This document shows positions 621 through 14,521 of a DNA stretch of 14,521 bases, in pieces; the first letter of the stretch is position 1; the number at the start of each line of letters is the position of its first letter. This DNA is from Candidatus Hermodarchaeota archaeon (GTDB taxonomy: Archaea; Asgardarchaeota; Lokiarchaeia; Sigyniarchaeales; SOKP01): the NCBI GenBank assembly GCA_048885525.1, contig JBHLLP010000064.1, positions 1 to 14,521 on the forward strand, given 5' to 3'. The notes under the pieces are model-generated. The model saw nothing but the letters and a program-made list of their open reading frames with translations. It ran no database searches and was not told the DNA's origin. A program made the position numbers and the translations under genes.

Positions 621-1880
621 TTAACATATACTTTTATCTTGAGTCCAAGCAATTTTAAACAATTTATCTTCTGAAATTAATTTTTCTAATATATTCTGAC
701 TAAATTGATTATAAAAAACAGGTTCTAAAAAGCTGGAGCTTTCAAAATAAGGTTTTATCAAATTTCTCTGTAAAGTAGTGTCGTTTTTAATTGTATTCGC
801 TAATTTCGTGTAATTATATACCCGAAGGTAAGAATCTACGCTTATTTTTGTAGGGCGATGAGTTTTAAAAAAACTTATCATGTTTTTAACGGATTCAAGC
901 GATTCATCTGGAAATCCTACTAATAAATCAACTGTTAATTCTATTTGATACTTATTACAAAATTCAATTATTTGCTTTAGGTGATTATAGTCGTAATGGT
1001 TCAAATTCTGAATTCTTTTATCGCTGGAAACAGTAAGTGCTATTAAATATGCATTAGATTCGTGTAGTAGCGAAAATAATTCTTCATTATAAGGATATGG
1101 CTTCATAAAAAGTTTCCATTTAATAGGGAAATTCTCCTTAACTAAAGCCCTACAAAACTTCATTGAAAAATTTAGATCAGAATTAAATTCGTTATCACAT
1201 GAGCGAAATTGCTTATAGCCTTGATCGACAAGATATTTAATTTCTTCTATAATATGTGGGATTTTTTTGTACCATCTTTTTGTATAAGATGAGACGCAGA
1301 ATGGACATTTATCTGAACATCCGGCGTGGGTTTCAAATCCAATATCCTCTTCCTTAGATAAATACATGGAATAATCAATTCTACTACCCCGAAAATGGAT
1401 TAATTCAATATCAGGTCCATATTGCCAACCATTATAAATCTTTTTTGTTAATTTTTGAGATTCATATAATTTTAAAAATCGGGGGAACATAATTTCCCCA
1501 GGACCAATGATACCATAATCCCCATCAAGATAATCTAATATTTCATGAGGCATGGCAGAAAAACCTGAACCACCTAGAACTACCGGGATGTTGCGTTCTT
1601 TGACGCATTGAACTAAAGGTTTAATAGCGGGTAGAAAAAACTCATTGTTAAAATAACCTAATGAGTCAATGTTACGGATTGAAAAACCTACGATATCATA
1701 TGAAATTTTATCTAATGCATTAGATAACTTATCTTCTTGAGATTCACAAAAGCATAAATCTAAGATATCAACATTGTAATTGTATTTCTCTAGAGCAGAT
1801 GCAATATATTCTAAGCCAATGGGGATTACTGGGGGGTCTTTGAATCTGTTTGGATTCACTAATAATATATTAAAAACCAT
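621..1880 (-). CDS. Cobalamin-binding radical SAM protein (class B methyltransferase-like), substrate unknown
   Basis: N-terminal B12-binding domain (ILLVNPN..PIGLEYIASAL..DIVGFSIRNID..VVLGGSGFS..GPGE) followed by CxxxCxxC (GCSDKCPFC) and a later LLVGFPDES motif. Confidence 0.85.
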   Translation of the reverse strand: MVFNILLVNPNRFKDPPVIPIGLEYIASALEKYNYNVDILDLCFCESQEDKLSNALDKISYDIVGFSIRNIDSLGYFNNEFFLPAIKPLVQCVKERNIPVVLGGSGFSAMPHEILDYLDGDYGIIGPGEIMFPRFLKLYESQKLTKKIYNGWQYGPDIELIHFRGSRIDYSMYLSKEEDIGFETHAGCSDKCPFCVSSYTKRWYKKIPHIIEEIKYLVDQGYKQFRSCDNEFNSDLNFSMKFCRALVKENFPIKWKLFMKPYPYNEELFSLLHESNAYLIALTVSSDKRIQNLNHYDYNHLKQIIEFCNKYQIELTVDLLVGFPDESLESVKNMISFFKTHRPTKISVDSYLRVYNYTKLANTIKNDTTLQRNLIKPYFESSSFLEPVFYNQFSQNILEKLISEDKLFKIAWTQDKSIC

Positions 1881-2137
1881 GTTTCTTCAATTTAATATCA
1901 TTTTAAATCGAACAGAAATTTAGAATATCATCTATTAATCTTTATTCTAAGGGTTAATATATCTTATATTTTCTATATAATTAAAAATAGAAAGTAATTG
2001 AAATAAAAGATGACAATATATAAAAGACTAAATCTAAAAATTTCTCTATTAGTATAAGATTGGAACAAGGAGATAGATTTTTATTTAAAACTAAAATCTT
2101 ACATTTTATTTTTTTCTTTTTAAATATATTTCATAAA

Positions 2138-2743
2138 TTAACTCGTGATTTGTATAATTTCCTCTATTAATTCATCTATCATTTTCACAGGTATACCACA
2201 TAACAATTCGCAATCACTAAAGATACCATTCAATCGAGAATTAGGACATAAAAATGAAAAATTTACCTCATTTCGTTTAATTACATAAGCAGTAACTTCG
2301 CTACATACTCCATCAATTATACCACAAGTTGCTTTTAAAGGTTTTTGATATAATCTAACATATGCTTCAACAATATACATACAATTATGAGGATTTAAGA
2401 TTAAAATAATACTATCATATTCTTCAACTTGTAATTTATTAATAGGAAAAAGTAGGATATATTCAAGTCCTTTTGCTTCTAACCTCATTGTTAATTCTAG
2501 ATTATCGGGTTCATTAAAAGCTAATATCCCTTTCTTTTTATGACAAGAAAAGTTTCCATTCTGGACTTTCAAAAATTCTCCTTGAGAAGCCATTTTAATA
2601 TATTCACAGAATCTTCTTGATTTACTTACTTCTTTAAATTTTAATTTATTGGATAAGTTTTTATTAAAATTATAAATGAGTTTAATCCCAATCGGATTAT
2701 ATTCTAATTTTAAAGTTTGCTTTAAATTTTCAAATTTATTCAT
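2138..2743 (-). CDS. DUF169 family protein (Cys-containing, probably metal/Fe-S binding)
   Basis: PIGIKL, RFCE, FSC, GVCSE, FSFLCPNSR and ELLCGIP match the DUF169 pattern as I recall it. Confidence 0.7.
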   Translation of the reverse strand: MNKFENLKQTLKLEYNPIGIKLIYNFNKNLSNKLKFKEVSKSRRFCEYIKMASQGEFLKVQNGNFSCHKKKGILAFNEPDNLELTMRLEAKGLEYILLFPINKLQVEEYDSIILILNPHNCMYIVEAYVRLYQKPLKATCGIIDGVCSEVTAYVIKRNEVNFSFLCPNSRLNGIFSDCELLCGIPVKMIDELIEEIIQITS

Positions 2744-2787
2744 ATACGTTCTACATTTCCTATAATAAAATTTTCAGAAGTTAAAGA

Positions 2788-3153
2788 TTAGAACCACTGT
2801 GTAGCATCTACTTCTAAGACTAAATCATTTAAAGTTGCAGCTCCAACTATTTTAACTCCTGGTATTAAATCCACTTTTTCCCAACCTAGCATTCTTTTAG
2901 AAGCTTCGCATACTAAAATCTCAATTCCCATTTCTAACGTCTTATCTATCATTTCCTTAACGGTTGGAAACGAGCCAAGTTTTATTCTGTCAGCTTCCCC
3001 AGGTTTTAAAATTCTTAATGCTGTACCTAAATAATATACTATAGGTTTAATATCCATCGCTTTAGCGGTTTGAGCTAATACTAAAGGAGAATATTGGCGT
3101 TCAGGGTCGTGTGATGTTTGAACATATAAAATTGTTTTTTCTTTTTCGTTTAT
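2788..3153 (-). CDS. DsrE/DsrF-like sulfur-relay or peroxiredoxin-like protein, about 121 aa (longer than the 89-aa track ORF)
   Basis: The frame stays open upstream of ATG 3057 to a TAA at 3159-3157, adding the DsrE N-terminus (TILYVQTSHDPERQYSPLVLAQTAKAMD). Conserved Cys in ILVCEAS and a VGAATL motif are present. The only start near the SD GAGGTG (3166-3161) is ATA at 3153. Confidence 0.75.
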   Translation of the reverse strand: MNEKEKTILYVQTSHDPERQYSPLVLAQTAKAMDIKPIVYYLGTALRILKPGEADRIKLGSFPTVKEMIDKTLEMGIEILVCEASKRMLGWEKVDLIPGVKIVGAATLNDLVLEVDATQWF

Positions 3154-3160
3154 TTTTTAA

Positions 3161-3166
3161 CACCTC
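3161..3166 (-). promoter_or_regulatory. Shine-Dalgarno GAGGTG for the DsrE-like gene
   Basis: Minus strand reads GAGGTG-TTAAAAA-ATA AAC GAA, a 7-nt spacer. Confidence 0.65.
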
Positions 3167-3691
3167 TTAACTTTTCAAAATTCTCATTTTTAAAACAAAT
3201 AAATTTTAATTTAAATTAGCGCTATTCACATAGAGTTTCTAACCCTAATAAATCTCACTTTTATCTTTCAGAAAGAAAAGTCAATATCATAAATTAAAAT
3301 ATTTATAAATCCGTGAAATAATTTATATAATATTATTTACGACCGAATTATTATTTAACAGCAATCTTGGGATTTATTTATATAAAAATCTAAAAATTAA
3401 TATTTTCGCTATTTTTCGTCTTTATAATTTTAATATTATTAAATTTTCGTTACCCCTTTTTAGAAATGAGAATTAAGTAATTATTGTATTTTTTTATTGC
3501 CTAAAGATTTGAAATCATAAAATGAAAATCATTTCCTTTAAAAAGTTTTATTCGAATGGTCTTCGTTTCCCACCGTCTCTCGCCGGATTAAGTTCGGCAG
3601 ATTTAAATATTGTAAATAACATATATAAAATGATAAAATATTATTTTATTTATTTAATTTAAATTTCTAATCCACTGAACCTTATTCGAAA

Positions 3692-5038
3692 ATGTTAAAA
3701 AAAAGAGAAAGGGAATTTGTTTATAGCAAGAATATAATTATTCCAGAGGATACTGAAATTTTAGAGTCAATTGACAAAAAAATATCAGAGATTGCTGATC
3801 CATATGAAATGGCACAAAATCAAATTGATATTGTCGCAGAAAAAATAGGGTTGAATGAGAACGTCACAAAATACCTTAAAAAAGTTGAGCGCTCATTAAT
3901 TGTATCAATACCTATTAAGATGGATGACGGGACTATCGAAATTTTTGAAGGATATAGAGTTCATCATTCAACCCTTCGTGGTCCCGGAAAGGGAGGGATC
4001 AGATTTGCTCCTAATGTTGATCTTAATGAAGTAAAGGCATTGGCTACTTGGATGACATGGAAATGTAGCTTGCTGAATTTACCTCTTGGAGGTGCAAAAG
4101 GAGGAATATGTGTCGATCCTAAAAAATTATCTAAAGGTGAATTAGAAAGATTGACTCGGAGATATACTGCTGAAATCTTGAATTTTATAGGACCAGATAT
4201 AGATATTCCTGCTCCTGATATGAATACGAACGCTCAAGTAATGGCTTGGATAATGGACACATATTCAATGCATAAAGGTAGACCCATTCCGGGTGTGGTG
4301 ACAGGAAAACCAATAGAAATTGGGGGATCGGTTGGAAGAGAGTCAGCAACAGGAATGGGATTATACTATGTACTTGAATCCTTATGCGAAAAGATAGATT
4401 TAGATTTAAAAGACTTAAGAGTTGTAATACAAGGATTTGGGAATGTTGGTGGAAATATTGCTGAAATTTTATATGAAAAAGGTGTTAAAATAATAGCAAT
4501 TTCAGACATTACAGGGGGATTATACCATAAAAATGGTTTAAATGTAAAAGATTTGCTAAGATGGAGGGATAAAAATTGCTATTTAAAAGATTTTGATAAA
4601 TCAAATTATAAGTTCATTTCCAATGAAGATTTAATCACATTAAATTGTGATATATTAATCCCAGCTGCAATAGAAAATCAAATCACTCACAAAAATGCTT
4701 TTGACATGAAATGTAAAATTATATTAGAGGGTGCAAATGGTCCTACAACTCCAGAAGCAGATGAAATTTTGAATGAAAAAGGGATCATTATAGTTCCAGA
4801 TATCCTTGCTAATGCTGGAGGTGTATGCGTTTCTTATTTTGAGTATATACAAGACATCCATAGTTATTTTTGGGATCTAAATAGAATTAATAAGGAACTA
4901 AAGAACATTCTTGTTAATGCGTTTGAAGAAGTGTATAATTTATCAATGGAAAAAAATGTCAGTCTTCGTATAGCTGCTTATATAATAGCCATTTCAAGAT
5001 TAGCTAAGGCATTTGAAGTGAGAGGTATTTTTCCATAA
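3692..5038 (+). CDS. gdhA: Glu/Leu/Phe/Val dehydrogenase family, glutamate dehydrogenase
   Basis: GYRVHH, RGPGKGGIRF, MTWKC, GGAKGG, DIPAPDMNT, VTGKP, GR.SATG, QGFGNVG, EGANGP, PDILANAGGV..SYFE and a C-terminal RGIFP. Confidence 0.95.
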   Translation: MLKKREREFVYSKNIIIPEDTEILESIDKKISEIADPYEMAQNQIDIVAEKIGLNENVTKYLKKVERSLIVSIPIKMDDGTIEIFEGYRVHHSTLRGPGKGGIRFAPNVDLNEVKALATWMTWKCSLLNLPLGGAKGGICVDPKKLSKGELERLTRRYTAEILNFIGPDIDIPAPDMNTNAQVMAWIMDTYSMHKGRPIPGVVTGKPIEIGGSVGRESATGMGLYYVLESLCEKIDLDLKDLRVVIQGFGNVGGNIAEILYEKGVKIIAISDITGGLYHKNGLNVKDLLRWRDKNCYLKDFDKSNYKFISNEDLITLNCDILIPAAIENQITHKNAFDMKCKIILEGANGPTTPEADEILNEKGIIIVPDILANAGGVCVSYFEYIQDIHSYFWDLNRINKELKNILVNAFEEVYNLSMEKNVSLRIAAYIIAISRLAKAFEVRGIFP

Positions 5039-5091: not shown

Positions 5092-6405
5092 TTAATGTGT
5101 CGTACATGAGACACAAGGATCAAAAGCTCTGATTATTCTCTGAATATTGTTTTTCACTAAATTAATATCTCCTGTTCTTTCAAAAAGTAATTTTGCATAA
5201 TTCGTAATCATTTCATTTATAAGAGGAATATTAAATTCGGTAGCAACAAATAATTTTGTTCGATCAATAAAATTATGATCATTTACGTAATAATGATGTA
5301 ATAATAAGCCTCTGGGAGCTTCAATAACACCAATCCCTTCAACTTTTTTTACAGAATTCAAAGCAGGGTTTTCTTGTTTAGTAATTAAATTAGGATCATC
5401 TAAAATTTGTAAACTCTGGAAAGATTCTAAATACATTTCTAATAATCTAAAAAAATTAGCAAATAAGATATTATTTTTCCATTGTTTATCAAAATATTCA
5501 AGATAATTTTGAGTCTCATCTGTACCATAATTCTCTGTAATATTGTACCGGGCAAAAGGACCTACAATCACATTTTTTTTATTATTAAAGTAAAAATCAA
5601 TTCCACGTAAATCAGGCTCCTTTCCAAAATAGGAAGAATAATTGTGCTTTTCAAAATCTATTAAATTTTTATTATCCTCTTTGAGTGATATTCTACCTGA
5701 ATATCGATTAGAATTTTTAAAATTCGAGAGCCCTAGATGAATGAGATTTGGAGTCTCAAATTCTTTAGGTGGTACTTGATGGGAAAATAATTCAATAAAT
5801 TTTTCGATAATCCATTCTAAATTGACTAATGCATTTTGAAATTTCTTTTTAGCTGTTGAAATATTTTTTTTGGAAGGATAAAAAATAATTCCTCCAGGAA
5901 TAATTGAAATTAAATGAACGGATCTACCTCCAAACAAATTATTAATTTCATTTCCAATTTTAATTAATTCATATATATTTGTAGTTAGTTGTGGGTCATA
6001 ATTGATTAAATCATAAGCATTTGCAGTTTTCTGACTAATATTAAAGATATTTAATAGATCTGGTAAAGCTTGGAAAAAGAAATTCATAGAATGGGATTTG
6101 ATTAATTCTCCAGTCATTAAAATACGTCTTAAGAGTTTTGCTTGTTCCGAAACCTTGATATTATATATATCCTCAACTGCTTTACAACTAGCGATTGTTT
6201 GAGAAGCATAACATAATCCACATATCCTAGAAACTATTTTTGGGATATCTAATAATGACTTTCCAATTAAAAAATGTTCAAAACCTCTATAAATTTTAAA
6301 TTCAAAATTAACTAAAGAAATTTCATCATTTTGGATTAAAATTTTTATATCGCCATGTCCTTCTATACGTTTACAAATATCAATCACTTTTAACACATTT
6401 CTCAC
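5092..6405 (-). CDS. mvhA: [NiFe] hydrogenase large subunit, group 3 (MvhA-like by context), with atypical sensor-like features
   Basis: RIEGHG, RGFE, L1 SRICGLCYASQ, EAPRG.L.H and L2 RAFDPCVSCTTH-stop. The GTG start overlaps the upstream TGA (GTGA, 6405-6402). Confidence 0.88.
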   Translation of the reverse strand: MRNVLKVIDICKRIEGHGDIKILIQNDEISLVNFEFKIYRGFEHFLIGKSLLDIPKIVSRICGLCYASQTIASCKAVEDIYNIKVSEQAKLLRRILMTGELIKSHSMNFFFQALPDLLNIFNISQKTANAYDLINYDPQLTTNIYELIKIGNEINNLFGGRSVHLISIIPGGIIFYPSKKNISTAKKKFQNALVNLEWIIEKFIELFSHQVPPKEFETPNLIHLGLSNFKNSNRYSGRISLKEDNKNLIDFEKHNYSSYFGKEPDLRGIDFYFNNKKNVIVGPFARYNITENYGTDETQNYLEYFDKQWKNNILFANFFRLLEMYLESFQSLQILDDPNLITKQENPALNSVKKVEGIGVIEAPRGLLLHHYYVNDHNFIDRTKLFVATEFNIPLINEMITNYAKLLFERTGDINLVKNNIQRIIRAFDPCVSCTTH

Positions 6406-7160
6406 CCTTCCAATTTTGGTTTAGAGAATCGATAAAAAATCCCAGTATAGTCTTTAAGTTCTTGAGATAAATTTATCAAACTTAAATAGTTAACAATATT
6501 AGAAGTAAAATCTTTTGATACAGGCCCTAGACATCCTTCACAGGGAAGACCCATTTTAATGCATTTATGTTCACACCCATCTCGAGTTATGGGTCCTAGA
6601 CATAATATGCCATTTTGTAAAAAACATTGAGAGGTTTCCTCATCAAGTTTAATCTCTTCTGGATTTGGAGCAATTTTTGTAATATTTATACTTGAATTTA
6701 TTTTCATATCTCCTCTTAATGGACAATTACCACACATATTCTTTTCAGAGAGCTCTATTTCCTTATTTTCAACCAATCTAATTAGACAATTTCCAAAAAG
6801 TTTCATAGGAGGTGGACAGCCAGGGATAATACCATCAATTTCAATATAATTTGAAATTGGCTCTGTAACTTTTACATCTGATAGACTCAATATTCCTCCA
6901 AAACTAGCACATGTTCCTAATGCATATATTTTTTTTGCTTGTTTTCGGAGTTTTCGAAGGATAGGTATTTGATTTTCTTCAGAAATGCATCCTTCCACTA
7001 AGCATATATCACAATCTTCAATGTCTTTTACATCAGAAATAAACTGAAAGTAAATAACTTTAGTTCTTTCAAGAAATTGCGGAAAAATATCTAACGAAAT
7101 AAGAGATGAGATGCATCCACTACAAGATGTTAGAGATACTATTACAAATCTACGTTTCAA
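6402..7160 (-). CDS. mvhG: [NiFe] hydrogenase small subunit (MvhG/VhuG-like), about 252 aa
   Basis: SLTSCSGC, LVEG, ALGTCASFGG, IPGCPP, CGNCP and CFLQNGILCLGPITRDGCEHKCIKMGLPCEGCLGP. Start reassigned to TTG 7160, which lies 5 nt after SD GAGGAGGT (7173-7166) and overlaps the upstream stop by 11 nt. Confidence 0.85.
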   Translation of the reverse strand: MKRRFVIVSLTSCSGCISSLISLDIFPQFLERTKVIYFQFISDVKDIEDCDICLVEGCISEENQIPILRKLRKQAKKIYALGTCASFGGILSLSDVKVTEPISNYIEIDGIIPGCPPPMKLFGNCLIRLVENKEIELSEKNMCGNCPLRGDMKINSSINITKIAPNPEEIKLDEETSQCFLQNGILCLGPITRDGCEHKCIKMGLPCEGCLGPVSKDFTSNIVNYLSLINLSQELKDYTGIFYRFSKPKLEG

Positions 7161-9699
7161 ATTTAACCTCCTCATATAATTTTGTATAAAATTTATTAAC
7201 TGCCTCAGCAAACTTAATGCCCTCAACAGCATTCATATGTTTAAGAATTATTCGTTCACGGTATTTCTCTGGTATGATATTTTTTAGTAACATTATTTTT
7301 TTTTCTACTTTTTCTACTCCATCAATATAACGACATGCGTTTTTTCTACAACCAATTACCATTATTCCATCGAAACCAAACTCAAAAGATTTAAGTATGA
7401 AACTTGTATCAATACGACCAGTACAGGGAACAGGTAAAATAAAAATGTTCGGATTATATGAAATCTTTTTATAACCAGCATCATCAGCAGCAGCATAACC
7501 ACAAGAGCGACAACAAAAGGCAATAATTTTAGGTCGTTTTCTGAACTTCGAAAAAATTTCAATTGATTTTAAAATCTTCCCAGAATTATCTATATTTAAA
7601 TCTATCGCATTAGTTGGGCATATACTAGCGCATGTACCACAACCCTTGCATTTAAATTTATCTATACTTACTTTTTCTGATTCTATTGTAATTGCGTTAT
7701 AAGGACATATTTTAGAACACAAACCACATAACCCACACTTGTTATCATCGATTTCAATTCCACTAAATTCCGCTATCAAATAATCATTGGAGAGAAGTGA
7801 AATTATCTTAATTGCAGTATTATTAACTGTTGAAATAGTAGAATTATAATCTAATGGTCCAAATATAGTTCCAACTCCATATATTCCAGATGCTAAGGTT
7901 TCTTCACTCATAAATCCGTAATCATCTAATGTAAAATCCATTGTTTTTCGAAATGATTTTAGATCTTCATTTGGTATTAATGTTTGGTTTAAAACAATTA
8001 AATCACTTGGATATTCTTTCGAGTCCACCTTTACTATCTTTTGATTGTTTTTTTCAATTATTTTTATTTTATTGCTATAATGCATTCTAGAATCCATGGA
8101 TCTAAGTAAAAAATCATCAGCTTTATTTATCTTACTTAAATCGTAAAAAATGTTTACTTTACAGCTAGGAATTTTTGCTTCAATATAATTTAAATATTTT
8201 AGTGCTAGGATATCTTGAAGTTTATGTTGGTGATCAGGAGGTCCTACATATTGTACAATTGAAATTGTCTTTGGAGGTGTTTTATCAGAAATTTTTAATA
8301 TTTTGCCTTCTGTAAATCCATCCGAGGATAACATTCTTTCAAATTCAGATGATGTAATTATATCATTTTGTGGGTTATAACAATAATCGTCTAAATCTGA
8401 GAAAAGGTCAGAACCTATAGCTATAACTTTTGTACCTACTTTAATTTCCATTGGCTCTGGTCTTTTTGTCAAATCTATGGCCTTATTCACGCAAGCACGT
8501 TCACAAATTCTGCAGTTAAGGCAATTATTGATATCTGATTCATCAATTAAAGGAACATAGGGAAAAGAATGAATAAATGGGATGTAAATAATTTTTCTAT
8601 TAATTAATCCAAATTCATATTGATTTGGTTTTTCAATACTACATACTTCTATGCATTGTTTGCAACTAGTACATTTCTTTATATCCACATATCGAGGTTT
8701 TTTAATCAAATTAAGAGTAAAATTTCCAACTTCACCTGAAACGCTTTCTATTTCAGTATTAGTAAGAACTTTTACATTTTTCTCATTAACTAACTCACCT
8801 ATTAATTCTGAAATCAAGCATATAGAACAATCACCCATATTATGAATTCGATCCCATCTGGCAACCTTACCTCCTAAAGTTGGCGATTTTTCAATAACAT
8901 ATACCTTTATACCAGCTCGAGCTAAATTTAATGCTAGTGTTATACTAGCAATTCCACCTCCTATAATTGCAGTACTCTTTTCAATTTCCACTCTCTTAAC
9001 TTTTACTTTTTCTTGAAGACTTATCCGTTCAATAGCTGCTTCAATTAGCAATTTTGCCTTTTCTAATGAAAGAACAGGGTCTATCTGATTTGTTTCGAAC
9101 TGATGTACCCAACAACATTGTTCTCTAATATTTGCTATTTCTATATTGAAATGGTCAATAACGCCATCAAAAATTCGTTTAAAAAGATGTTGATGAGTTC
9201 TAGGAGAACATGCTGCTATTACAATCTTATTTAAGAAATTATCTTTTACCCAATGAGTAATTTTATCAAAATTTTTTTGTTGACATAAATTTTCGAAGAT
9301 TTTTACAGAAACAACCATTCTTAACTTACTAATATATTTTTCAAGTGCCATTATATTAATTACATTTGAAATTTCTGTATTGCAGTTGCAAATTATCACT
9401 CCAATTCGGTTTATTTCACTTCCCTTGGAATCTAAATATTCCTCAATATTCTCTCCTGATAAAATTCTTTTGTTAAGGTTTAGAATCTTTAATACGCGTT
9501 TACCATCTTCAGTAAGAAAATATGATTTTTTGTCTTTATTTATCAGTGAACCAATTTTTTTAAGATGGAAATTTAGTTGCCCTGTTGTTTCTAGACCCAA
9601 TTTTTCCATTAAATCTGTATAGGGAATATAACCCTCTTTTTCTAAAAGAAGTAAGATTTTTCTTCTAAACGGGTGAGATAATATAGCATATAAATCCAT
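7150..9699 (-). CDS. Fusion protein: ArsR-like winged HTH (aa ~1-75) + degenerate HdrA (aa ~98-720) + MvhD [2Fe-2S] domain (aa ~722-849)
   Basis: wHTH: LSHPFRRKILLLL..YTDLMEKLGL.TTGQLNFHLKKI..YFLTEDG. HdrA: RIGVIICNC, AACSPRTH, ANIREQCCWVH, IIGGGIAS, GDCSIC and four CxxCxxCxxxC motifs. MvhD: IIAFCCRSCGYAAAD..VPCTGRID..DGIMVIGCRKNACRY. Confidence 0.9.
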   Translation of the reverse strand: MDLYAILSHPFRRKILLLLEKEGYIPYTDLMEKLGLETTGQLNFHLKKIGSLINKDKKSYFLTEDGKRVLKILNLNKRILSGENIEEYLDSKGSEINRIGVIICNCNTEISNVINIMALEKYISKLRMVVSVKIFENLCQQKNFDKITHWVKDNFLNKIVIAACSPRTHQHLFKRIFDGVIDHFNIEIANIREQCCWVHQFETNQIDPVLSLEKAKLLIEAAIERISLQEKVKVKRVEIEKSTAIIGGGIASITLALNLARAGIKVYVIEKSPTLGGKVARWDRIHNMGDCSICLISELIGELVNEKNVKVLTNTEIESVSGEVGNFTLNLIKKPRYVDIKKCTSCKQCIEVCSIEKPNQYEFGLINRKIIYIPFIHSFPYVPLIDESDINNCLNCRICERACVNKAIDLTKRPEPMEIKVGTKVIAIGSDLFSDLDDYCYNPQNDIITSSEFERMLSSDGFTEGKILKISDKTPPKTISIVQYVGPPDHQHKLQDILALKYLNYIEAKIPSCKVNIFYDLSKINKADDFLLRSMDSRMHYSNKIKIIEKNNQKIVKVDSKEYPSDLIVLNQTLIPNEDLKSFRKTMDFTLDDYGFMSEETLASGIYGVGTIFGPLDYNSTISTVNNTAIKIISLLSNDYLIAEFSGIEIDDNKCGLCGLCSKICPYNAITIESEKVSIDKFKCKGCGTCASICPTNAIDLNIDNSGKILKSIEIFSKFRKRPKIIAFCCRSCGYAAADDAGYKKISYNPNIFILPVPCTGRIDTSFILKSFEFGFDGIMVIGCRKNACRYIDGVEKVEKKIMLLKNIIPEKYRERIILKHMNAVEGIKFAEAVNKFYTKLYEEVKFET

Positions 9700-9821: not shown

Positions 9822-10955
9822 TCATGAAGGAGTTTTGTATGATTTCGATTTATTTAATAAAAATTGCTCCGTTCTTGCTATTTTTGATTGAGAGAACTGG
9901 TTAAGTGTTTCTTTCATTTGATTTTTAATTGTATTATCTATTTTTAAACTCTTAATTATCCCTGTTTTAATTGCTCTATCAATTATATCTTTTCCTTTTT
10001 TAGTTCGAGTGATTACTGTTGTAAATTTATCTGGGGAACCTAATCCTCCAAAAGAGATATCAGCATAAATATTAGTAAAATCTTTGCAAACTTCACAGGC
10101 GGGACGCATATAATCAGTTAATTCTTTAAAGTTTATATAAACCTCTTTTTGATCGGCTACATGGTTTTTTAACTCAATAATTAAATTCTCTTTAATATTT
10201 ATTCTCTTAATATCCTTGAATTTAATTTTAAATTGCTTCTCGAATTGTTTCATTTTTGTTCTATCAAAGAAGAAATTCTCATAGCAAAATAGTCCAAGAC
10301 AGATTTCTATGTTTTCGGATGGAATTATTCCTAGACTTTGCATACATCTAATTGTATAAATTTGGCAAGGAGTCCCAACAAGTGCTAATTTCTTAAATTT
10401 ATAATGCCGTAATTTAGGTAATGAACTAATATATGTATGGAATTTCTGTATCGTGTCTAATTGTGCTGACATGTCCAATTTTGTACCTGAGGCATTTATT
10501 AAATCATTTCTAGTTTTAGCGATAATAGCTTCTCTAGAGAAAGCTGATTTTGTTTTTGCAACAATTGCTCCTTCAATAATTTTTTTTTCTATTAAGTAAT
10601 TTATAATTGTGTTTACAACGCCTCCATCTGTTCCATATTTCAAAAATTCCTCATCAGTTGATTGACATGAATAAATATTATCTATATAACCTAGAGGCAT
10701 TAATGAAAAGTCTGAAAAATTGAAAGTTTTATTAAGATCTTCATCTAAAATATGTGTTTGTGGACAGATCAAATAACAGATACCGCACTCTAAACACTTT
10801 TTCTTGTTTATATATTCTGGCGGTGAATTAGGGTTTTTAAAACCAATCACTTCGTTTTCAATTGAATTACAAAAACTCACACAGCCACCACATTGTTGAC
10901 AAATGCCGAGTTCATGAACCTCTTTAATTAAATCTTGAAAATCTTTAATTTTCAT
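9822..10955 (-). CDS. Coenzyme F420 hydrogenase/dehydrogenase beta-subunit family protein (FrhB/FdhB-like) with N-terminal ferredoxin domain
   Basis: CQQCGGCVSFC, CLECGICYLICP, GTDGGVV, VGTPCQ, LGLFCYENF, CEVCKDFT.IYADISFGGLGS and RTKKG. SD-like GGTGA lies upstream. Confidence 0.9.
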   Translation of the reverse strand: MKIKDFQDLIKEVHELGICQQCGGCVSFCNSIENEVIGFKNPNSPPEYINKKKCLECGICYLICPQTHILDEDLNKTFNFSDFSLMPLGYIDNIYSCQSTDEEFLKYGTDGGVVNTIINYLIEKKIIEGAIVAKTKSAFSREAIIAKTRNDLINASGTKLDMSAQLDTIQKFHTYISSLPKLRHYKFKKLALVGTPCQIYTIRCMQSLGIIPSENIEICLGLFCYENFFFDRTKMKQFEKQFKIKFKDIKRINIKENLIIELKNHVADQKEVYINFKELTDYMRPACEVCKDFTNIYADISFGGLGSPDKFTTVITRTKKGKDIIDRAIKTGIIKSLKIDNTIKNQMKETLNQFSQSKIARTEQFLLNKSKSYKTPS

Positions 10956-11372
10956 TTTTAAAAATCATCACCATTCATTATTAATTTTAAAAATTTTTAT
11001 GACTATTTTGATAAACTTTATGATCTCTATGATAAATATTGTTGTCAAAGTATATAAATGTGATCTATTTTCCGTTTTTTACTTTTAGATATTGTCAAAA
11101 ATATATTAATAAAGTCTCAATAATAATTATGAAACCGATAGATCCATCGTATGAAACCAACCATATAAATATCAGATTCGTACATTAAGTCAAAAAAAGA
11201 CAAAAAAATTAGTCAAATTAATAAAATTTCCCTTATCATATTTTTTAAATTGACTTAAAATCTTCATTTAAACGGAATAAGAGATAATAAAACATTTTTT
11301 GCATTTTTAAATTTTTAATTGTTTTAATTTCATTCATTTGCTTTATTATTAGGAGTTGGTGATGTTATAAAT

Positions 11373-11383: not shown

Positions 11384-13420
11384 ATGTCTGAGATACAGAC
11401 CATAGTAAGAATAGGAGTTTATATTTGTAGATGAGGAGTTAATATTAGTGCTTCTATTGACTGTGATATCATCAGAGATTACGTTGAAGCTCTCCCAAAC
11501 GTTATTGTAGCAAGAGTAAATGATTTTACTTGTAGCGATCCAGGACAAAATATTATAAAAAATGATATTTTAGATTTAGACTTAAATCGAGTTGTTGTTG
11601 CAGCTTGTACACCTAAAATTCATGAATCCACCTATCGAGTAGTTTTAACTCAAGCAGGATTGAGCCCTTATTACTTCCAAATGGTTAATCTGCGTGAACA
11701 TTGCTCATTTACATACTCGGGAAATAAGAGAAAGACTACTGAAAAAGCGATAAGGTTAGTGCAAGCTGGGATAAATCGTGCTAGAGAATTAGAAATAATA
11801 CCTTATAAAAAAGTGTCAGTAGAAAAATCAGTATTGATTATCGGTGCGGGCATTGCAGGGATGAATGCTGCATTAGATTTAGCAAATCAAGGAATTAACG
11901 TCTATTTAGTCGAAAAAGAAGCCACAATTGGCGGGAAAATGGCACAATTAGATCGAATTTATCCTACAGACGATTGTGCTATATGAGTTTTAGCACCTAT
12001 AATGGTTAGCACTTCAAAACATCCAAATATAACATTATTTACTTATAGTGAAATCATTAAATTTAGTGGTATCCCTGGAAATTATAATGTTAAAATTCAC
12101 AAAAAAGCACGGTATATTAATGAAAAAAAATGCACTGGTTGTGGATTATGTACAACTGAATGCCCAATAAAAGTTCCTAACGAATTTGATAGAGGTATTG
12201 GCGAACGAAGTGCAATTTTCATACCTTTTCCCCAAGCAGTACCTAAAGTTGCGTTAATTGACAAGAGTGTATGCATAGGATGTAAAAATTGTCAAAGAAT
12301 TTGCCCTGCAGAAGCCATTGATTTTGAACAGACTTCAGAATATATAAATATAAAAGTTGGAGCGGTAATTATTGCAACGGGATGGGATGAATATCCAATT
12401 ATGGAAAATAACGATTATAAATATGGTATTTATCCTGATGTTATTACTCAAATAGAATTAGAACGTATGTTGAGTCCAGTAGGACCAACTGGAGGTCATG
12501 TATATAGAATTTCTGATGGGAATATCCCAAAAACAGTTGCAATGATTCAATGCGTAGGTTCAAGATCCTTAAATGGAAATCCCTATTGCTCAGGAGTATG
12601 ATGTAATGTTGCACTTAAAAACGCGCAATTGTTAAAACAAGAATATCCTGATATGGAAATTGTTATCTTTTATATAGATATGCGGACATGGGATAAAGGA
12701 AATGAAGAATATTATAGAAAAGCGAGAGAAGCAGGGATAATGATGATTCGGGGGAAGGTAGGAGATATTCGAGAAGATCCTAACCTTAAAAAAATAAAAG
12801 TTATAGCTTCTTCAACATTGACAAATGATTTCATTACCATGAATACCGATTTAGTTGTATTATCCACCGGTATGATTCCATCTAAAAAAACAACACAAAT
12901 TGTTGAAACTTTAGGTATTGCTAAAGATATCAATGGGTTTTTAACTGAAGTTCATGGATGCCTAAAACCTCAAGAAACAACTAATTTGGGTATTTATATT
13001 TGCGGTTGTGCTGCTGGACCTAAAAATATCCCTTATTCCGTCTCAACAGCGTTAGCTGCGGCAAGTAAGGTATCTACTTTACTTTCTAAAGATAAAATAA
13101 CTCAAGAGTTAATCATCGCTGAAATAAATGAAGATTTATGTATAGCTTGTCATAGATGTGAGAAACTCTGTAATTATAAGGCAATAAAAGTTAATGGAGA
13201 AAATATAGCTGAAGTAGACGATTTGAAATGTAAGGGCTGCGGAGTTTGTGTATCTTCATGCCCTGCTCGAGCAATTGATCTAAAATACTATAGAGATCAA
13301 CAAATTATTGAAGAGATAAAAGGGATTTGTAGCACTGAACTTGAATATAAGGAAGAATTTATTGAATCTATTGAACTTGTTTGGAAAAAAATAGAAGAAT
13401 TAACTCCTTATACTTCATAA
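11384..13420 (+). CDS. hdrA: Heterodisulfide reductase subunit A, 678 aa, predicted selenoprotein with three UGA-Sec codons (U17, U201, U406)
   Basis: A single frame from ATG 11384 to TAA 13418-13420 joins track ORFs 11660, 12002 and 12629 plus an unlisted N-terminus (MSEIQTIVRIGVYICR*GVNI). TGAs at 11432, 11984 and 12599 fall in CR*G, DDCAI*VLAP and YCSGV*CN, all Cys positions in HdrA. GAGIAG, QCVGSR, GPKNIP and four ferredoxin motifs are intact. Confidence 0.93.
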
Positions 13421-13528: not shown

Positions 13529-14521
13529 TCAGTAGCGATTAATTTGATTTTTGATCTTTAAGGAAATTAATTTATTATACCAATCTAATTTCTTATTCTT
13601 CCATTCAATAGTTCTGTCAGATGGAACAATAAGTTGCTCAATTATTCCTTTTGAAAGCATATTATTTATTACTTTCTCACCTTTATCTGTTCTAATTAAA
13701 ATCATGGAATATCCTTCTGGAGCTCCAGACGCCCCAACACTAATATCTGTAAATCTTCCTGTGAATTCATCACATTCATGGCAATTAATTCTTACTGCAG
13801 GATTAAGAGTTTTTATATTGATTTCGAATTCTTTATTATCTTTAGTTTGGATAAAAAAATTCTTTTTTATCCAAGTTTTTTTAATATTAGTAGGATCAAC
13901 ATTAGTCTCTTTTCTTAGAATATCATATAATTCGCTATAGATAAAATTCTCAAAACAGAAAAGACCTATAATATATTTAATTACATGCGCGGGTTTTACA
14001 AGTAAATATTTCATTTTACTTACAGCCTTACATTGACAAGGAGTTCCAATAAATGCAATTCTTAGCTGATCGATATCAAATATTTCCTTTTTCATAAGAA
14101 TCTCTTGTGGTATAGTATATAAATTTTTTAAAGGAAATATTTGAGGAGAAATTGAATAACGAGTACCTGCTGATTTAAAAAGATCTTCTTTATCAAATAT
14201 GATTTTTGGAACAGGTTCAAAATTATCGTTAAATTCTGAAACAATAGCTGCATCAATTTTATGTTTTTCAAATAAATATGTTAGAATTGCTGAGACCACT
14301 CCTCCATCTTGTCCAATTTTTTCTAATGTTGAGATTGTTGTTTTAGCAGCAAGAATTTTAATAATATATCCAATATTATCTTCAATACAATAATTATCAT
14401 TCAACTCTTTTAATAATACTTTAGTTTGGGGACAAATATAATAACAAACACCACATTTAGTACAATTCTCAACAGTTTTTTCTGATTTAAACTCCGGAAT
14501 GTATCCTTTCATTTCAATAAC
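13529..14521 (-). CDS. Second FrhB/FdhB-like F420-binding beta-subunit protein, 5'-truncated by the window edge
   Basis: CTKCGVCYYICP, GQDGGVV, SAGTRY, IGTPCQ, IGLFCFENF, CHECDEFT...DISVG and RTDKG. The frame is open beyond ATG 14512 to the edge (..VIE-MKG), and the paralog's first ferredoxin motif is missing, so the true start lies outside. Confidence 0.88.
   Translation of the reverse strand, partial: VIEMKGYIPEFKSEKTVENCTKCGVCYYICPQTKVLLKELNDNYCIEDNIGYIIKILAAKTTISTLEKIGQDGGVVSAILTYLFEKHKIDAAIVSEFNDNFEPVPKIIFDKEDLFKSAGTRYSISPQIFPLKNLYTIPQEILMKKEIFDIDQLRIAFIGTPCQCKAVSKMKYLLVKPAHVIKYIIGLFCFENFIYSELYDILRKETNVDPTNIKKTWIKKNFFIQTKDNKEFEINIKTLNPAVRINCHECDEFTGRFTDISVGASGAPEGYSMILIRTDKGEKVINNMLSKGIIEQLIVPSDRTIEWKNKKLDWYNKLISLKIKNQINRY

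Follow-up and report, generated by a model that had tools for sequence, protein, structure and literature searches.

Enzyme-regulator fusions with a DNA-binding domain, such as PutA, BirA and NadR, are well known. The archaeal RbkR likewise joins an enzyme to a winged helix-turn-helix (wHTH), and its operator lies at its own gene and at pathway genes (PMC5397151). None of these proteins, RbkR included, is known to contain a hydrogenase-connected Fe-S/flavin subunit for electron routing. SurR of the Thermococcales, a redox-responsive regulator of energy genes, is a stand-alone protein with a CxxC switch that activates from upstream of BRE/TATA and represses by overlap (PMC12401011). A hydrogenase is linked to transcription in the H2-sensing HoxBC-HoxJ-HoxA system of Cupriavidus necator (group 2b). 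In the MvhAGD-HdrABC complex of methanogens (5ODC, 8RVU, 9SW2), the HA4 cluster of HdrA is the electron route to HdrB (PMC13580544), and solved complexes place the N-terminal domain of HdrA in a mobile arm (PMC12350162).

Asgard archaea live on H2 exchange with partners, and H2 sensing in archaea is, to our knowledge, an open question. Two papers describe a Helarchaeota 'energy-transferring complex' for which electron or H2 transfer was proposed (Seitz 2019, PMC6478937) and an Asgard-specific 'group 3b' hydrogenase that is absent from MK-D1 (Zhao and Biddle 2021, PMC9723726). A term search of both found no wHTH, operator or regulatory role. The Seitz 2019 complex is very likely the operon reported here, as it has three genes of the same kinds. 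Literature searches on DUF7347, on HdrA with a helix-turn-helix in Lokiarchaeota and on an Asgard HdrA regulon, mostly outside subscription journals, returned nothing relevant, and we could not find a DNA-binding HdrA described in the literature searched.

The fusion gene and its conservation

The window analyzed here is a 14,521-nt stretch of contig JBHLLP010000064.1 (GCA_048885525.1) from Candidatus Hermodarchaeota archaeon, a Lokiarchaeia-type genome, and all coordinates refer to it unless another contig is named (Table 1). A single minus-strand frame of 849 open codons (9699..7150) encodes a wHTH, HdrA (aa 98 to ~705) and MvhD (aa 725-841) in that order, as placed by profiles and alignment. 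The initial annotation had the wHTH running into HdrA without a stop, with codon 75 ending at 9475 and R98 beginning at 9408; the uninterrupted frame and both positions are correct. From codon 35 to codon 100 there is no in-frame start codon.

Table 1. Features of the window (position 1 is its first nucleotide)
Feature	Coordinates	Strand	Remarks
MvhA-like [NiFe] large subunit	5092..6405	-	ends at L2 His, tail absent
MvhG-like small subunit	6402..7232	-	13 invariant Cys; second Met may be the true start
MvhD/FlpD domain	7150..7527	-	own cysteines present; profiles, alignment
HdrA body	7585..9408	-	N-terminal cluster Cys, Cys291/294 pair, FAD motif, two ferredoxin domains, Glu454 and Lys501 retained
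Former HA4 cluster loop, aa 484-500	8200..8250	-	all four Cys lost here; hypervariable across the family
Helix 5 end and flexible linker, aa 76-97	9409..9474	-	neither stop nor start codon; low pLDDT at 78-94
wHTH (DUF7347, ArsR-like fold), aa 1-75	9475..9699	-	profiles, model, dN/dS 0.038
FrhB-like gene	9822..10955	-	first gene of the operon here; same place in 24/79 loci
Candidate operator 2	11009..11026	.	two mismatches; 21 bp (two helical turns) past operator 1
Candidate operator 1	11030..11047	.	perfect TGAYAA-N6-TTRTCA, directly downstream of the operon TATA box; scores highest among the genome's intergenic sites
Candidate TATA-like box of the frhB-fusion-mvhG-mvhA operon	11051..11058	-	conserved at -11..-4 from operator 1, 66 promoters
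Candidate operator 3 (11198-11215), half-site, then TATA-like box of divergent Sec-hdrA	11198..11250	+	operator with two mismatches here, perfect in most relatives; 27/28 loci
Canonical selenocysteine HdrA (Sec-hdrA), predicted target gene	11384..13420	+	in-frame UGA at three Cys positions

The wHTH is present in each of the 120 best homologues (66-90% identity); for 14 of these, the annotation begins only at a later start. At 80/80 genome loci from other assemblies the wHTH is in frame with HdrA, and mvhG- and mvhA-like genes come next, with one exception, if the contig extends far enough. Because the homologues and these loci share the fusion, an assembly artefact can be dismissed, and the wHTH-HdrA-MvhD fusion is confirmed as real. 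Homologues with a named source come mostly from Promethearchaeota/Lokiarchaeia, and 71 of 301 Asgard genomes, in seven families, hold 72 fused copies. The fused HdrAs form one clade (100/100) separate from 15 unfused HdrAs. Separate encoding of the two parts, raised at the outset as grounds for rejecting the fusion, was not seen among the matches, and the tree points to a single old origin.

The wHTH is the most constrained part of the fusion protein. Its mean identity in the homologue alignment is 86% versus 64-80% elsewhere, and its dN/dS is 0.038 versus 0.06-0.12 in the other regions, with no region above 0.12. The alternative that a decaying hdrA was joined passively to a regulator gene upstream, or that initiation occurs separately past the wHTH, would agree with the poor conservation of the HdrA TrxR2 region and the loss of its cluster, but it is scarcely credible given the single origin, the low dN/dS in every region, the missing internal start and the absence of a split form among the matches.

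The wHTH domain

Residues 2-72 match PF24038 (DUF7347) with 44.8 bits against a cut-off of 27.6, and HTH_24 is matched too, which bears out the predicted HTH. The match to the NCBIfam ArsR/SmtB profile (NF033788) lies below its cut-off (22.7 vs 55 bits). The earlier description as an ArsR-like wHTH is thus right for the fold and not for the family, for which DUF7347 is the best assignment. The AF2 model (pLDDT 85.6) has winged-helix topology (helix-helix-HTH-wing-helix), and the top Foldseek rows are ArsR/HxlR/MarR-type regulators (1y0u, NolR, YodB, CadC) at a probability of ~1.0 and E values of only 0.007-0.05. The recognition helix (aa 39-48) is almost invariant, and residues 1-97 contain no Cys. 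A long C-terminal helix spans aa 64-80; in ArsR-type proteins such a helix is the dimerizing element. Complex prediction with two wHTH copies gave a score of 0.28 against a mark of 0.42, which carries no weight for or against a dimer. Dimerization through the HdrA homodimer, as put forward in the initial annotation, is a further hypothesis. Three further DUF7347 domains are encoded in the same genome (G000 C3:96300-96527, C39:22521-22715, C60:846-1052), one of them inside a 669-codon frame.

A candidate operator at the operon promoter

Of 79 operon promoters, 66 contain an 18-bp palindrome, TGAYAA-N6-TTRTCA, with no more than one mismatch, versus 1.4 expected from resampled sequence. Since the pattern was derived from the same related promoters on which it was first scored, independent sets weigh more. 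The palindrome recurs in 13 of 18 distant loci (36-63% identity, GC 27-46%) that have different neighbours, and the five misses are all in family f18. No clear site accompanies the fusion in this family or in two further distant loci; one f18 genome (G050) carries two copies of the fusion operon, also with no clear operator. Where frhB has been inserted, the palindrome stays at the operon start and is found in 0/24 of the frhB-fusion spacers. Across lineages the site and the operon co-occur, with the site at the operon start and lost where the operon is lost. Its place just behind the TATA box would, by analogy, be a repressor position.

A genome scan allowing one mismatch gave 128 matches, mostly chance, and for this reason we claim no wide regulon. 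Covariation of helix residue 41 (Lys/Arg) with site loss looked suggestive in 7 loci and was rejected on account of locus L083, which has the palindrome despite a changed helix residue.

An altered HdrA

The wHTH on HdrA is real, unusual (as the initial annotation noted) and conserved; the HdrA that bears it is not the normal one that had been assumed. The cysteines equivalent to 386, 399, 403 and 404 of 5ODC, which we take to be the HA4 ligands, are all absent from a hypervariable loop, and the LDKTFPT motif is altered. The TrxR2 region, in which this cluster is lost, is the least conserved part of the fusion. Retained are the N-terminal cluster cysteines, the Cys pair, two ferredoxin domains and MvhD, with invariant Cys. 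The GxGxx motif is also kept, its neighbouring motifs are altered, and FAD in the Loki form is putative. Lys501 and Glu454 (Lys409 and Glu356 of 5ODC) are present in 121/121 sequences; Lys409 is the flavin-N5 lysine (PMC13514486).

The fusion shares the HdrA fold of the methanogen complexes (~30% identity, TM 0.8 by target), their MvhG and MvhA partners, the flavin Lys/Glu and the Cys pair. MvhD is fused as in the HdrA2-type HdrA-MvhD fusion NF040770, against which the protein scores 571 bits where the cut-off is 1100. It differs in its N-terminal wHTH, in the loss of HA4 in this lineage, in a large subunit with Gln and no tail, and in an operon (frhB-fusion-mvhG-mvhA) that lacks hdrBC; CCG proteins are encoded elsewhere in the genome. 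With HA4 lost and the HdrA N-terminal domain located in the mobile arm, the wHTH appears to be attached to a part that moves as electrons are transferred, and one electron exit is closed.

The order of losses was read on the HdrA tree rooted with unfused HdrAs. Deep fusion members retain HA4, the L1 His and the large-subunit tail. Family f21 has lost HA4 in part, f3 and f1 share the Gln, and f1 alone has no tail. This suggests that the fusion did not start as a stripped sensor.

The hydrogenase subunits

The MvhA-like subunit has all four Ni cysteines, the Glu and the canopy Arg. The L1 His is replaced by Gln in 71/71 large subunits from close loci, and the C-terminal tail is absent in 69/69. 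Both features belong to HoxC (PMC5665086, PMC7294309), and our own check of HoxC also found the Gln and the missing extension. They are not diagnostic of sensing, because PMC5665086 states that the L1 Gln 'seems not to be involved in H2 sensing', and the tail is likewise missing from group 4 enzymes (PMC7294309). In a tree with long branches and few references, the Asgard large subunits form their own clade (100/98) apart from HoxC, and their nearest solved structures are group 3. As deep members keep HA4, the His and the tail, the likeness to HoxC reads as convergent and recent. The Asgard enzyme shares with the Hox system these two features and the link to transcription. In contrast to that system, it is of group 3 lineage, unrelated to HoxC, and it is the partner protein of the hydrogenase itself that carries the DNA-binding domain; in profile searches, neither the operon nor the window yielded a histidine kinase or a response regulator.

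Relatives have a separate canonical selenium hydrogenase adjoining hyp and hdrCB genes, and hypD is present in 37 of 40 genus genomes. In this genome, rated 99% complete, hypC/D/E and the housekeeping hydrogenase are missing. A Hyp-independent hydrogenase-like protein was considered and rejected: contig C48 ends (27489) within hypF, where relatives continue into the hyp/hydrogenase locus, so an assembly gap is the best explanation. In family f18 (L087-L090), the large subunits have Lys in place of the L1 Arg and Val in place of the terminal His.

Predicted target genes

Under translation table 11 Sec-hdrA appears as three ORFs; read-through gives a single selenoprotein of 678 aa in which codons 17, 201 and 406 are UGA. 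Sec-containing HdrA is known for Asgard archaea (PMC11227280). At this divergent promoter the palindrome lies upstream of the TATA-like box in 27/28 loci. The composite, activator-type site was detected in 26 of 41 genus genomes and in 0 controls, and 29 of the 30 composite-site loci examined lie ahead of either Sec-hdrA or an operon that includes the gene for methylene-H4MPT dehydrogenase (mtd).

The composite site is missing in eight genus genomes without a detected operon, and before three mtd orthologues there. Genome G225 retains a 73-codon mvhA remnant between gdh and mtd (L170:8614-8832); the rest of the operon is gone, and 17 kb of sequence contain no palindrome site. Site loss along with the operon is support, not proof, since the genomes concerned are drafts, site and operon are frequently linked, and the site-less mtd genes also lack the first gene of their operon. 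Matches to Sec-hdrA in fusion-less genomes (site in 1/13) are mostly paralogues and serve as background only.

Discussion

Based on these observations, we hold with moderate confidence that the fusion protein is a redox- or H2-responsive transcription factor built on an Mvh-Hdr chassis. The parts of this reading carry different weight. It is very probable that the wHTH binds the TGAYAA-N6-TTRTCA palindrome, which it would do as a dimer, and, given binding, redox control of it is likely. The wHTH would repress its own operon from the sites just behind TATA and activate the Sec-hdrA and mtd operons from the site ahead of TATA. These positions fit the rule of SurR, which differs in its other motif, its CxxC switch and the lack of a fused enzyme. 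The sites are placed such that the protein would turn its own genes off and neighbouring redox and one-carbon genes on, and it is probably a gene switch that responds directly to H2 or redox state.

In the mechanism that we propose, the co-encoded hydrogenase would dock on the fused MvhD, and electrons would be loaded or unloaded at the HdrA clusters and FAD. Loss of HA4 would close the exit to HdrBC, so the module would hold a redox state that tracks H2 or the carrier pool. This state would shift the mobile N-terminal arm of HdrA with its wHTH and alter DNA binding; we infer both the mobile-arm mechanism and the direction of the switch. A more specific proposal, somewhat short of an even chance, is a kinase-free archaeal H2 sensor, in which a group 3 hydrogenase and a bifurcation chassis were rebuilt stepwise into a one-component transcription factor that sets Asgard C1/redox expression by H2. 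Such a dedicated sensor would be categorically new and convergent on bacterial H2-sensing hydrogenases.

The strongest competing explanation, which we consider rather unlikely, is a metabolic enzyme that evolves or oxidizes H2, with ferredoxin as partner or F420 through the FrhB-like protein. HdrA would then regulate by abundance or assembly, the free subunit binding DNA, and not by redox. The retained catalytic Cys, Glu and Arg, the invariant Lys501 and Glu454, co-transcription of frhB-like in 24/79 loci and the resemblance of deep members to complete enzymes are all as expected of such an enzyme, and two papers interpret the cluster in terms of energy transfer (PMC6478937, PMC9723726). It accounts less well for the progressive loss of HA4 with convergence on two sensor-hydrogenase marks, for predicted targets beyond the operon itself and for the existence of a separate canonical hydrogenase.

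It is less probable still that the palindrome is owned by another regulator and that the wHTH acts non-specifically or in a role unrelated to DNA, as a nucleoid or protein tether. A similar site could be recognized by the three other DUF7347 proteins of this genome, some fusion loci have no site, and L083 keeps the palindrome with a changed helix residue; set against this, the site tracks the operon start across lineages and moves with the operon, and the recognition helix is nearly invariant.

The transcription-factor reading makes a named protein, an 18-bp operator and a set of target promoters available for in vitro tests. If it is correct, the Asgard 'group 3b' hydrogenase, at present taken to indicate H2 production, would have to be interpreted differently, and the HdrA moving arm would prove to be reused as a signalling device.

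Neighbouring genes and related loci

The window also encodes a second FrhB-like protein (13529-14512), glutamate dehydrogenase (3692-5038), a DsrE-like protein (2788-3057), DUF169 (2138-2743) and a B12 radical SAM protein (621-1880); frhB2, gdh and dsrE recur near the fusion operon in close relatives. In locus L082 (760-5589), a distant fusion operon directly follows a NuoEFG/HydABC-like cluster of diaphorase genes that has a small-subunit gene of its own. On contig C85 of the present genome (L130), the predicted target operon (1115-3426) encodes a 209-aa family-less protein and then a 561-aa protein, whose N-terminal part is related to the 209-aa protein and is joined to a methylene-H4MPT dehydrogenase; another candidate site is found at 3698. 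On the same contig (13-945), an FrhB C-terminal domain is followed by a TrmB-type HTH without a break in the frame, which gives this genome a second redox-enzyme/HTH fusion.
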